A DNA stretch of 64,000 nucleotides from Orbicella franksi (Eukaryota), in assembly GCA_964199315.1 (NCBI GenBank), contig OZ116707.1, positions 7,750,001 through 7,814,000 on the forward strand. Reading direction: 5' to 3'. The notes under the pieces are model-generated. The model was not told the DNA's origin, made no database searches, and was given only the letters and a program-made list of their open reading frames with translations. This document shows, in pieces, positions 2,014 to 19,439 of the stretch. Numbering within the stretch: the first letter of the stretch is position 1; each line of letters begins with the position of its first letter. The position numbers were made by a program, and so were the translations under genes.

Positions 2014-3382
2014 ACATTTTCATCTTTATGGTTATATTCTATTTGCTATTTATTTCTACAGCAAAGTGTCATCTAGGTAAACTGAGACTACCTTTTATTG
2101 CATTTTAATTCCAGATGATGACCAATGTGACGATGAAGTGTCATCTCAAGGTGACAATGAAGTGTTATCTCAAATGTTTTGTGGCCTTCATCAACAAAGT
2201 AAGTATTTTGGCTTTTTAGCATCAGTATTTTGCTCTAATGTTGTTTACCTAGTAAACGAAGTTTACTGTAAGTCATTACTTTGTCTTCAACCTCTATATG
2301 TGTATCAAAGACTATATTTCTGTTCATGTTCCAAAACACAAATGGTGATTATTGAGATGACCTTTTATCTGCAACTGTCTTACATTTTCTGTAAATGCTT
2401 CATTACTCTCTGAATGAAATCTGTTTTACTGTCACTACACGTATGTCAAATCAAGCTGTTCTGTCACACCATTCAACAATTTTGCTCTGATCTCATCTGC
2501 AGACTCTTCTTGTCAGCAAATGAGGAAAGTGTACCATAAGTTATTAGTTTTTGTTAAACTTCTGTTCATGTGTAAAGAATCTATATTTACAAAATGTTAC
2601 ATTTTCATCTTTATGGTTATATTCAATTTGCTACTCATTTCTACAGCAAAGTGTCATCTAGGTAAACTGAGACTACCTTTTATTGCATCTTAATTCCAGA
2701 TGATGACCAACGTGATGATGAAGTGTCATCTCAAGGTGACAATGAAGTGTCATCTCAAATGTTTTATGGCCTTCATCAACAAAGTAAGTATTTTGGCTTT
2801 TTAGCATCAGTATTTTGCTCTAATGTTGTTTACCTAGTAAACGAAGTCTACTGTAAGTCATTACTTTGTCTTCAACCTCTATATGTGTATCAAAGACTAT
2901 TTCTGTTCATGTTCCAAAAGACAAATGGTGATTATTGAGATGACCTTTTATCTGCAACTGTCTTACATTTTCTGTAAATGCTTCATTACCCTCAGAATGA
3001 ACTCTGTTTTACTGTCACTACATGTATGTCAACTCAAGCTGTTCTGTCACACCATTCAACAATTTTGCTCTGATCTCATCTGCAGACTCTTCTTGTCAGC
3101 AAATGAGGAAAGTGTACCGTAAGTTATTAGTTTTTGTTAAACTTCTGTACACGTGTAAAGAATCTATATTTACAAGATGTTACATTTTCATCTTTATGGT
3201 TATATTCAATTTGCTACTTATTTCTACAGCAAAGTGTCATCTAGGTAAACTGAGACTAACTTTTATTGCATCTTAATTCCAGATGATGACCAAGGTGATG
3301 ATGAAGTGTCATCTCAAGGTGACAATGAAGTGTCATCTCAAATGTTTTATGGTCTTCATCAACAAAGTATTTTGGCTTTTTA
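2014..3382 (+). repeat. ~584-bp tandem repeat (2 full units plus a partial third) containing candidate small exons
   Basis: Unit starts (acattttcatctttatggttata) at 2014, 2599 and 3182. Each unit has ag|15 nt|gt and ccag|84 nt|gtaagt blocks (2115-2198, 2700-2783). Confidence 0.9.
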
Positions 3383-15410: not shown

Positions 15411-17210
15411 AATATTTTGCATACACACTTAATCAGTGGAGCCCTCTATCACTTGCTTTGTTATCTCAAAGTGCACTTTCTTATCACTTCCATGGAGAGG
15501 GTGGGGGGTAAGTGGATATTTCAAGGAACTACATCATGTACATGATCACAATTTATTGAACATATGAAATAAATTTCAGTTAATCAACAACTCTTGTTTC
15601 TAGTTTGAGCTATGTGCTTTGCTAATCATCCGTTCATCGACCTTGGATGGCCTCACATGAGAATCCTGAAAACCAGCCAATCAGAGTGAACTTTAGCATC
15701 TTGATACGTGCTTGCTAAATTTGGCCAGTGTCTTTTGCTCTCACACGAGATAAACTACAGTGCGACATTTTGTCCAGAATATTTTCTATTCACATATTCC
15801 CTCTTCTACTTCGCCCATCATCTGGAAAGTGGTAAACCCAGCCAGAATCTAGCCGGCGTAATTGCAGGGCTCATTGATCTTGCATTCTGCACGGTGTTTT
15901 GAACGCATTATAAACCAAACAGGTCTTGACAACATGCCACCGACTTGCCGAGCAAGGAACACTTCCACGTTGGCTGACCCCGGTTATTTACCTGCAGACC
16001 TCGAACTTGGGAGACAAAATGTTAAAGATTTGCGATCTTTGTGCAGCCGGCTCAACCTTGCAATGACCGGCAGACGTGCTGCCCTGATTAATCGTATCGA
16101 TGAGGCACGGCAAAACACAGGAAACCTTTCTGGCACTCCGCCCCCTATTCAAGATGGCGGCGAGCACATGGCGAACCAAAATGCTCTTGAACTGCAGTTC
16201 CAACAACTCCAGCGTCAAGTCCGAGAGCTACTAGATCGGGAATCGCCACGAGATGGGCTTTTGTCAGCCACACAACTGACCCAAGTACAATCCATCGTAC
16301 AAGGGTCATTAAACGAGGCGATAGAAAAAGCCACAGTTTGTGCTTTCGGTAGCTTGCCTCCACTAGCTCCCAATCCAGCCACCCCTGCAGGAGAATCCTC
16401 TGTGGATGTTACACCAACTTCTTCAGCAGCATCCACAAGCAATAGCCTACCCGAATCACAAGACCTGGAAATTGCTCTAGATCTGCAATAGACACAGCAA
16501 TGGATTCCGCCCACGAGCTGCCGGCCAAACTGGTCAAGGAGATCCCCACTGATGAGTTCATGGAACTATCTAAATTGCTTCCCAAGAACTTTAACCTTTT
16601 AAATCTGTCCCAGGATGAGCCGCTTACCTTAACTGTGGAAAATTCAGTCATTAAAGTAAATAAGGCCAAAACTACAATAATAAGTGACATCCCGGAGTGG
16701 ACGATGGTGTTTAGTGCCTACATGGGTGTTCTAATGAGCAAGTTCCCACACCGTGCCTCTGAGTTACTAGAATATATGTCTCTCATTTGCTATTCTGCTA
16801 GATACCATAAGGGGTTAGGCTGGTGTGTGTATGACATAAAGTTCCGGCAGAAGGCTGCCACTAACAAGTCATTGAAAAGGTCAACCATTGATAGTCAATT
16901 ATGGCTCAAAACCTTCACAGTTGCACCTTCACTTCTAAAGGAAGACGTTGGGGTTTTCCAGTCAGGACCCTCATCGTCAAGTACCTCTAGGGGGACTGAA
17001 AAACATACTTGTCACCACTTCAACAGGGGGGATCCCTGTGCCAGAACCGCTTGCATCTATGCCCACAAATGTAACAGGTCTGGGTGTGAGAAAGATCATC
17101 CCAGGATCAAGTGCCCAAACATGACCCGCCTAGATTAGCTCAGCTATCCGCGGGCATGTTACAATTGTAATTTTAATTTCATAACAAATAAAATGTATGT
17201 ATGTATGTAA

Positions 17211-17254
17211 CTGCAGACAGTACTGTTTCGGCCTTCTGGGCCTCATCAGTGCAG
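17211..17254 (-). ncRNA. Type I hammerhead ribozyme, copy 1
   Basis: Minus strand reads CUGCA-CUGAUGA-GGCC(CAGAA)GGCC-GAAA-CAGUACUGUC-UGCAG: complete core, stems I-III and a GUC cleavage triplet. Confidence 0.9.
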
Positions 17255-17452
17255 TGCTGAAGACTAGGATGGAGGTTAAGCTTAAAAAGCCGCCCCAAAT
17301 GCTACACATGTGGTAGTATCTAAGCCGTTACCAGAGTGCTCAAACTAGCGAGCTAGTGAGCATGCGCAATTGCAACAGTAACGACTCATCCCAGTAGAGT
17401 GCTCAAACTGAACATGAAAGCAGAGCTTTGTATGCCAGCGAGCTATATCTAA

Positions 17453-17496
17453 CTGCAGACAGTACTGTTTCGGCCTTCTGGGCCTCATCAGTGCAG
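17453..17496 (-). ncRNA. Type I hammerhead ribozyme, copy 2
   Basis: Identical 44-nt motif, 242 bp from copy 1. Confidence 0.9.
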
Positions 17497-17540
17497 TGCT
17501 GAAGACTAGGATGGAGGTTAAGCTTAAAAAGCCGCCCCAA

Positions 17541-17566
17541 TGTATGTATGTATGTATGTATGTATG

Positions 17567-17596
<30 letters not shown>
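17541..17596. repeat. (GTAT)n microsatellite
   Basis: About 14 perfect tetramer copies; shorter GTAT runs occur at ~17194, ~17857 and ~42901. Confidence 0.95.
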
Positions 17597-17597
<1 letters not shown>

Positions 17598-19439
17598 CTA
17601 TGGTACAGAAAAACAATCTTCCCCAAGGGTGGGAAAGTCACCTCCTGAGCACCAAAGCACCTGCCACCGAGAAAACCAAAACCAAAACCAATTCATAAAA
17701 CATGTAAATGACAATTTTATAATTAGTTAACATAAGTCAATTGTAAATATGTAAATAGCAATTTCTATTTTAATTTTTCGTTGTCAAATATTTTGTTGCT
17801 CGGAAATATTAGCTGGTCAAGCTACTCTGAAATTCAAGCTTAAATAAAGTTTATTTATGTATGTATGGTGTAGTTACTCCTGTCAATGTAGAAAGGTTAC
17901 ATCAGGCCTTATCCAATCATCCTGAAAGGGAATTTGTCAACAAACTGTGTTCAGACGTGAGGGAGGGGGTTAGGATAGGTTACTCTGGTCATAGATCCCC
18001 ACGCTTTTCAAATAACTTACCTACTGCTTCTTTAAATCCTGAGGTGGTTACAGCAAATTTAAATGATGAGGTTTTAAAAGGGCGTACCATGGGCCCTTTT
18101 TCCACACCCTTTTTTAAAAATTTTCAAGTTTCGCCTATTGGTCTTGTTCCCAAAAAACATTCCGACAAATTCCGAACCATATTTCATTTATCCTACCCTA
18201 AGTCTGGGACCTCTAGCATCAATTATTTTATTGAAAAGGATGATTTCTCCCTCCAATATATTATTATTGACAACACCATCACAGCAGTTCAAAACTTTGG
18301 CCACGGCTGCTACATGGCAAAAACAGACAGAGTCTGCTTTTTGCCTCATTCCACTCCATCCAGATGACTGGGAACTTCTGGGGATGTTCTGGAATGGGCA
18401 GTATTATTTCGACAAGGTACTGCCATTTGGGCTTCGCTCTGCCCCATACATTTTTAACCAATTGTCTGATGCCATCAAGTGGATTTTACTCGACAAATGT
18501 TCCATTTCCTTTGTCGGCCACATCTTGGATGATTTCCTCATAGTGGAACCACCCTGTCCTACCCCTCCGCTGGATTCACTTTGCCGGGCAAGTCTGTCAA
18601 GTATGATCTCGACCTTCAAAACTCTGAACATTCCTATCTCTGCATCCAAAACCGAGGGGCCTTCTCAAATTATTCAGTTCATGGGTATCATACTAGATCC
18701 TGGGAAAATGGAGGCAAGGCTACCCGATGATAAGGTAGAGAGGATCAAGTCTGCTCTCTCCAATTTCCAATCCCGGCGGTCAACAACCCTGCAAGAACTT
18801 CAATCACCAGATAGGTACCCTTAATTTTGCTTGCAAGGTAATAGCTCTTGGGTGCCCCTTCCTACAACGGATAATTCACCTTACCAGAGGTGTTAAGAAA
18901 CCCCATTATCATATAAAGCTAACCACAGGTTTCTACAAGGACATTGAAATGTGAAAGATGTTCATGGACCAGTGGAACGGTATAGGACTATTCCTATCCC
19001 CTCTGTGGGAAAACTCCGACACCCTCTCCTTGTTCACAGATGCGTCTGGCTCCCTGGGTTATAGGGTTTTTTCCAAAAAAGATGCTTTCAGGGACAGTGG
19101 CTACCATCTCAACAACTAGGCCAGCCAGGGATCAGCATTCTCTGGCAAGAACTATATGTAATTAACTTTGCATGCCACTTGTGTGGGGGGCCCTTTGGAC
19201 ATCCAAGCGTATTCAGTTCTATTGTGATAATCAGGGTGTAGTTGAGGTCATCAATTCCCGTCGATCCAAAGTTCCCCGGGTAATGGACTTGGTAAGAGAC
19301 CTAACACTCTGCACCCTGCGGTATAACTTTTATTTTCAAGCAGTGCATGTCCCTGGGATCAATAACAACATTGCAGACTCTCTTTCTCGTTTCCAGATGG
19401 AACGCTTCCACCAGCTAGCACCCCACACCAAGACGAAAT

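Follow-up and report, generated by a model that had tools for sequence, protein, structure and literature searches.

Within the window, by which we mean the whole 64,000-nt stretch of Orbicella franksi DNA that was analysed, two direct repeats (17204–17298 and 17446–17540) are spaced 242 bp apart and agree over 95 nt with one mismatch; they contain an exact 91-bp match (17208–17298 and 17450–17540), just as the original prediction of ~90-bp repeats at this spacing had it. On the minus strand each repeat carries the motif ACUGCA-CUGAUGA-GGCC(CAGAA)GGCC-GAA-ACAGUACUGU-C / UGCAGU, with a stem I of 6 bp, a stem II of 4 bp, a GUC cleavage triplet and every core base intact, and the two predicted cuts delimit a 242-nt monomer (17457..17216; Table 1). 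Both motifs match the Rfam model Hammerhead_HH9 under its cut-off of 52 (25.8 bits, E 5e-4; 22.9 bits, E 4e-3). At gathering score Rfam gave zero matches in the window, and its miRNA matches below gathering arise from the ATGT repeat. The pair had been described as two identical, complete type I hammerheads: the type holds for both, with identity limited to the core and proximal stems, and the downstream copy has lost its distal stem I to flanking DNA (fold -15.6 versus -19.0 kcal/mol). The further label of minimal hammerhead had to be withdrawn; the canonical type I definition (PMC4209133) accommodates the 6-bp helix I, the 4-bp helix II and the short palindrome of helix III, and neither the shortened helix I without a defined loop 1 nor the missing helix III of the minimal, Penelope-like element (PLE) type is found here.

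An internal loop and a distal stem I are predicted, and the HH9 model aligns over its full length, which bears on a loop 1–loop 2 contact. The stem III palindrome is unfolded alone (0 kcal/mol) and reaches -13.4 kcal/mol as a 10-bp duplex, and stem III is not formed in the circular fold. The folding energy of the monomer is unremarkable (z -1.22); the minimum-energy fold of the locus transcript is a double hammerhead. In silico, cleavage of the locus hammerheads as a dimer is plausible. Since a related monomer of Acropora millepora is cut efficiently in vitro (PMC7229834), dimers may not be required. The unit is predicted, on its sequence, to self-cleave and circularise. Metazoan non-LTR retrozymes bear a type I hammerhead in each of at least two consecutive units, measure 150–450 bp with a G+C content under 50%, are non-coding and lack LTRs. 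The 242-nt unit agrees on all these points (G+C 0.48; PBS and PPT received no specific search), and with its dispersed copies and a close published relative it upholds the proposed class of non-LTR retrozyme. The claim that there is no ORF stands insofar as the unit is non-coding; a 68-codon ATG frame, the longest there, is present on the circularised minus strand, with no evidence of its use.

The insertion is nested within other mobile elements. The outermost host, 15545..19431, is a degenerate retrotransposon which we take to be DIRS-like, and copy L083 of this element presents an empty site, without the insertion at 17117–17594. Inside it lies a LINE 3' end with 215 candidates in the genome, the same tail being present in 14 of 14 copies inspected. 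The GTAT repeats that had been noted on both sides of the unit do exist, as ATGT repeats at 17193–17207 and 17540–17596 (14.2 copies), but they are the tail of the host LINE end: because LINE copies share this tail and L083 has an empty site, the flanking repeats are the target and not part of the retrozyme unit. These copy comparisons place the retrozyme within the ATGT tail of a LINE end, which in turn lies inside the DIRS-like element. Another insertion in the latter, about 190 bp long (17676–17865), missing from L083 and with an AT-rich tail at its end, is probably a further LINE or SINE 3' end. Elsewhere in the window one 24-bp tandem unit occurs at four places within 2123–3341 and 52924–53558, which suggests two copies of one repeat element.

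Table 1. Features of the retrozyme insertion and its hosts (positions in the window)
Feature	Position	Strand	Basis or remark
Outer host: degenerate, presumably DIRS-like retrotransposon	15545..19431	+	SAP, RVT_1 and RVT_3 frames (Pfam)
3' end of high-copy LINE with ATGT tail (host, outside retrozyme)	17115..17207	+	RVT_1 upstream in copy L089, E 3.7e-26
Remainder of LINE ATGT tail, split off by retrozyme insertion	17541..17596	+	Repeat and copy comparison
Retrozyme insertion	17208..17540	-	333 bp: partial unit of 83 nt, truncated 5' and starting at unit position 160, then a complete unit and 8 nt past last cleavage site
242-nt monomer between two predicted cleavage sites	17216..17457	-	G+C 0.48
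Upstream type I hammerhead	17452..17497	-	Predicted cut 17458/17457; distal stem I reaches about 17509 and 17443
Downstream type I hammerhead	17210..17255	-	Predicted cut 17216/17215; flank in place of distal stem I
Hairpin H1 (unit +15 to +60)	17398..17443	-	GCUC/GAGC stem, 2-nt 3' bulge, upper stem, trailing ACU; begins 6 nt past the family's fixed 3' end
Hairpin H2 (unit +97 to +123)	17335..17361	-	Same GCUC/GAGC bulged motif as H1
Fixed 3' end of retrozyme family (UGCAGUUA)	17208..17215	-	Putative reverse-transcription start site

A 34-nt core of the unit has 126 exact matches in the 497-Mb genome (G000) and a reversed control has none, so the matches are not due to chance; exact internal unit junctions number 47. 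DNA search returned 78 matches of 91–100% identity from the 40 of 140 candidates that were scored. The family is dispersed over 15 large contigs, with the longest array, of about 11 units, on C8, and variants are shared array-wide among the units of one array. Most other copies lie in TA tracts beside PLEs. Metazoan non-LTR retrozymes are mobile, with target duplications, when present, of more than 4 bp; such duplications flank L024 (14 bp) and L017 (9 bp), and none is discernible at the window copy, which lies inside a microsatellite. Loci were picked by score, and the junction and family counts given here are therefore no random sample. One unit on C3 has exactly the sequence of the window unit, and the commoner subfamily departs from it at five sites, which marks the insertion as recent; we read the window copy as a recent 1.3-unit insertion from a younger subfamily.

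An autonomous element sharing this hammerhead was sought in twenty regions around single or widely spaced cores; all proved to be truncated retrozymes, one of them of a diverged subfamily. A variant core from polyA reads, followed as another lead to such an element, reached two loci, both retrozyme relatives. A second retrozyme subfamily of about 85% identity is present at L068 (G000:C1:43105100-43110100), where the upper stem of H1 covaries and resembles the Acropora unit, and at L057-L058 (G000:C2:18.59-18.60 Mb) the same truncated retrozyme recurs in each of three tandem segmental repeats of 5 kb.

The ends of the copies are markedly asymmetric. Among 71 distinct 3' junctions at the fetched loci, 59 fall 5–8 nt past the cleavage site (57 at +8, one at +7 and one at +5), seven are mutated near the end and five are internal. 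A TA-type microsatellite follows 51 of the 59, and 27 of them carry extra GTTA units, from one to nine; the 5' ends, by contrast, are scattered over the unit, and one copy (L040) has an inverted 5' copy. Such ends are what target-primed reverse transcription should leave when it begins internally on RNA that runs unbroken across the cut site; a start of this internal kind has been demonstrated for the PLE Poseidon (PMC11167929). Copying would pass the cut site after 8 nt, and a cut linear monomer would yield those 8 nt only, from which we deduce that the productive template is a circle or an uncut multimer; of the two we somewhat favour the circle. GTTA runs at the 3' end (nine extra units at L062, four each at L044 and L076) fit slippage on a GUUAG start, and similar short reiterations are seen at ends of Hydra-type PLEs (L148, L161). 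At L099, L131, L060 and other loci, TA microsatellites are sinks with nested Neptune, Hydra and retrozyme insertions.

The fixed 3' end of the retrozyme lies 6 nt before H1, and H1 and H2 share their form with a hairpin in the tails of Hydra-type PLEs: GCUC, an upper stem of 3–5 bp whose sequence varies among families, a 2-nt bulge, GAGC and then RCU. This hairpin was seen beside the ends of nine of ten Hydra-type families, the tenth being known from a short-ended copy only, and the upper stems differ in sequence between families yet pair. When the stem requirement was lifted, the 2-nt-bulge register was the only one in which typical family sequences paired; five matches located elsewhere than in these tails lacked this pattern. 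Matches to the motif in the window are only two, H1 and H2 themselves; 100,000 shuffles of the monomer gave 31 sequences with one motif and none with two, a post hoc figure, the motif having been defined after both elements were seen. Pair probabilities on the circle are 0.84 for H1 and 0.99 for H2, single-hairpin z-scores range from -0.2 to -2.8, and folding energy alone lends the hairpins weak support.

The position of the hairpin relative to the ends is likewise shared. Hydra copies end 3–9 nt before hairpin 1, and those of family b mostly 3 nt before hairpin 2 (long-end figures of families a and c were dropped because the reference ran into the microsatellite, and families e, h and i gave no counts). 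Two hairpins stand ahead of the start codon in the full Hydra junctions (L156, L170, L185, L186). The corresponding retrozyme ends before the second hairpin were predicted, and one such copy was found (L189), ending at the base of H2. Among six published Hydra consensi (File S7 of PMC8557442), three, from coral and sea cucumber, contain the exact motif (Hydra-2_Amil, Hydra-1_Ajap, where it occurs twice, and Hydra-2_Ajap), two contain a variant and one stops before the tail. Hydra-clade elements are defined by a reverse transcriptase with a C-terminal GIY-YIG domain and by RWK, DKT and CxCX5C (PMC8557442). The last three are present in the Hydra ORFs of this genome, in which long-frame Hydra-type elements are numerous; the helper candidates L169, L170 and L185 qualify as autonomous Hydra-clade PLEs, and the retrozyme has no such ORF. 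Beyond the hairpins, the fetched loci yielded no Hydra family with homology to the retrozyme; the two share their target and a cis element that is equally spaced from the 3' end in both. At L169 and L060 retrozyme 5' ends are joined straight to a Hydra tail with no TA repeat between, and at L169 a 711-codon Hydra frame is followed by almost exactly one retrozyme turn, through template switch or nested insertion.

Together, these observations make it likely, in our judgement, that the window holds a recent 1.3-unit copy of a published stony-coral non-LTR retrozyme, copied into AT-rich microsatellites by a Hydra-clade Penelope-like reverse transcriptase-endonuclease. Tandem copies would be transcribed and cut after GUC, as demonstrated for the A. 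millepora relative, and the monomer would be ligated into a circle, as demonstrated for relatives. A Hydra protein would then bind the bulged GCUC/GAGC hairpin that the retrozyme is observed to share with Hydra 5' UTRs, nick (TA)n DNA and begin reverse transcription about 6 nt upstream of H1, with occasional slippage adding GTTA, a course that would account for the observed end, target and repeats. Copying straight across the cleavage site, with variable stops, would leave the 0.2 to about 11 units that are observed. Several points weigh against this reading: Neptune elements use the same TA tracts, so that a shared location cannot tell the helpers apart; copies hardly ever end at H2 (a single case); of the six published Hydra consensi two show only variants of the motif and one stops before the tail; L140/L142 (below) lacks the motif; and hammerhead cleavage was dispensable for insertion in the one PLE tested in vitro (PMC11167929). 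Evenly balanced, to our minds, is the broader proposal that the bulged hairpin is a template-selection RNA element of Hydra-clade reverse transcriptases that sets the start a few bases upstream and is conserved from corals to sea cucumbers. Coral retrozymes would then be minimal parasites made of a hammerhead and two hairpins, the start 8 nt past the cut would render only a circle copyable, and slippage on GUUAG would amount to telomerase-like repeat addition.

An alternative that concerns the copying step only, and is compatible with a Hydra helper, is that the template is the uncut linear tandem transcript and circles are a by-product; we regard this as possible, if somewhat doubtful. The Poseidon protein uses unprocessed RNA in vitro (PMC11167929), and long genomic arrays could template multimers. 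Against it, relatives accumulate as circles (PMC7229834), and 5' ends are in excess at one full turn (+4 to +14), with 16 of 85 rows, some of them spurious, versus 3.9 expected, an excess inflated by AT microhomology with the target. Ends at the cleavage site +/-1 make up four rows versus 0.7 expected (p about 0.006, uncorrected), in a set of 85 that still contains about 10 internal or duplicate rows. Two 8-nt stubs stop exactly at the cleavage site, both at one locus, the only one that the stub search gave. The 5'-end excesses and the stubs hint, weakly, at cut RNA in vivo and lean towards cleavage and circles.

RNA runs containing the retrozyme include coral metagenomes, and contigs from two runs (X8, X9) close into a 242-nt cycle, a graph that tandem DNA or read-through gives as well; these contigs carry the alleles of the other subfamily, and their depth, with a probable DNA run as reference, is not raised over that of the LINE end and is no evidence of expression. 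Raw polyA reads are few (6 and 39), have no start or end peak and come partly from L077 (G000:C1:17502495 region), a diverged retrozyme copy with its second hammerhead inverted. As L077 is the origin of most hammerhead-bearing polyA reads in X22 and X24, it probably lies within an mRNA.

Unlikely, in our estimation, is mobilisation of the same retrozyme by Neptune or any Penelope-like enzyme, with the hairpins as relics of a Hydra ancestor or in another role, such as promoter, DNA-level endonuclease site or RNA stability. Neptune-type elements are abundant, with many long open frames and a CX5CxxC linker, target the TA tracts that the retrozyme also occupies and are frequently found beside its copies, and the tail of Drosophila Penelope is needed for DNA recognition by the endonuclease (cited in PMC11167929). 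Against such a helper, none of four Neptune-type families carries the motif (0/4), the spacing from fixed end to hairpin in the retrozyme matches Hydra ends, and the Acropora relative keeps both hairpins with changed loops. Neptune elements that had seemed to carry the motif proved to have tails without it, the motif belonging to adjacent Hydra ends. The motif was not found in the more diverged family L140/L142 either (45% identity), a PLE-like 3' end whose hammerhead core leads directly into GAAT-type repeats. In the Neptune families of L119, L132 and L126, two 3' ends lie about 75–100 nt apart without the Hydra hairpin, and Neptune families may have a start signal of their own.

That the retrozyme is a SINE-like passenger of the LINE whose tail holds the window copy is very improbable: its location within that 3' tail is what speaks for it, but the retrozyme is antisense to the LINE, has no 3' sequence in common with it, and has most of its other copies in TA tracts beside PLEs. 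A DNA-level satellite or local duplication with a hammerhead-like motif arisen by chance, to which the tandem arrays and the Rfam scores under gathering might point, is scarcely credible against dispersal over 15 contigs, fixed 3' and variable 5' ends, target duplications, an intact core and near identity to a published retrozyme.

As an element the retrozyme is unexceptional and has been published before; what is new is a testable lead on the helper, namely the common hairpin and the tie to Hydra. Neither was found in the literature searched, and Repbase entries, subscription papers and supplements (for example the coral alignments in Fig. S2 of PMC7229834) may hold them. A review of 2020 states that animal retrozymes show no conserved motif indicating a helper transposon (PMC7761336), and the single Penelope-like enzyme so far examined in vitro initiates internally, from a signal that is undefined (PMC11167929). 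The retrozyme and the Hydra clade have in common a covarying hairpin of 27 nt whose distance from the start site is constant; it names a helper, and a single purified protein with a handful of RNA mutants would suffice to test both helper and start signal. The hairpin could also serve as a short tag steering a chosen circular RNA into TA repeats.

The original prediction had left open whether the family is described. By sequence it is already in print, as the predicted 243-nt retrozyme of Pseudodiploria strigosa (Cervera et al., 2016; PMC4918200, Additional file 11), which shows about 8 differences in 243 nt from the window monomer (about seven substitutions and one indel, read by eye from reassembled PDF fragments) and has the same hammerhead, both hairpins and the same numbering from the cleavage site. 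In the available parts of that source it appears as a predicted fold only, without analysis of ends, targets or helper; compared with this entry, the window copy belongs to a younger subfamily, five diagnostic changes away from the commoner one in G000. The 229-nt unit of A. digitifera (PMC4918200, Additional file 11) has the same core and both hairpins, with changed loops. Acropora non-LTR retrozymes of 220–245 nt (Cervera and de la Pena, 2020; PMC7229834) resemble the window unit in size, canonical type I hammerhead, tandem organisation and G+C under 50%. For A. millepora, cleavage and linear and circular RNA have been demonstrated and PLEs proposed as helpers, whereas for the window sequence cleavage and circles are predictions, and copy number is far lower here, at 126 exact cores versus 1508 canonical motifs in Acropora retrozymes (PMC7229834). 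Xenopus retrozymes derived from PLE pseudo-LTRs (Li et al., bioRxiv 10.64898/2026.07.22.740005) have the general PLE origin and helper model in common with ours, but the case there, in the portions of the preprint consulted, is built on sequence homology in frogs, with other organisms unexamined according to its authors and no cis element proposed; cleavage was found in only one of nine elements tested.

Hydra-clade PLEs (Craig et al., 2021; PMC8557442) are like the retrozyme in their type I hammerhead, (TA)n target, 5' truncation, inverted 5' copies and two hairpins next to the 3' ends. The retrozyme differs from them in having no ORF and, among the fetched families, no alignable sequence beyond the hairpins, and in the distance from cut site to 3' end, which is 8 nt in the retrozyme and about 40–50 nt in Hydra. 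Poseidon of Anolis (Frangieh et al., 2024; PMC11167929) likewise starts internally downstream of a hammerhead, has two start sites bounding its tail and uses AT-rich targets; it belongs to another clade, its start lies in an AC-rich stem-loop, and its binding element has been narrowed, in the available text, only to a 172-nt region.
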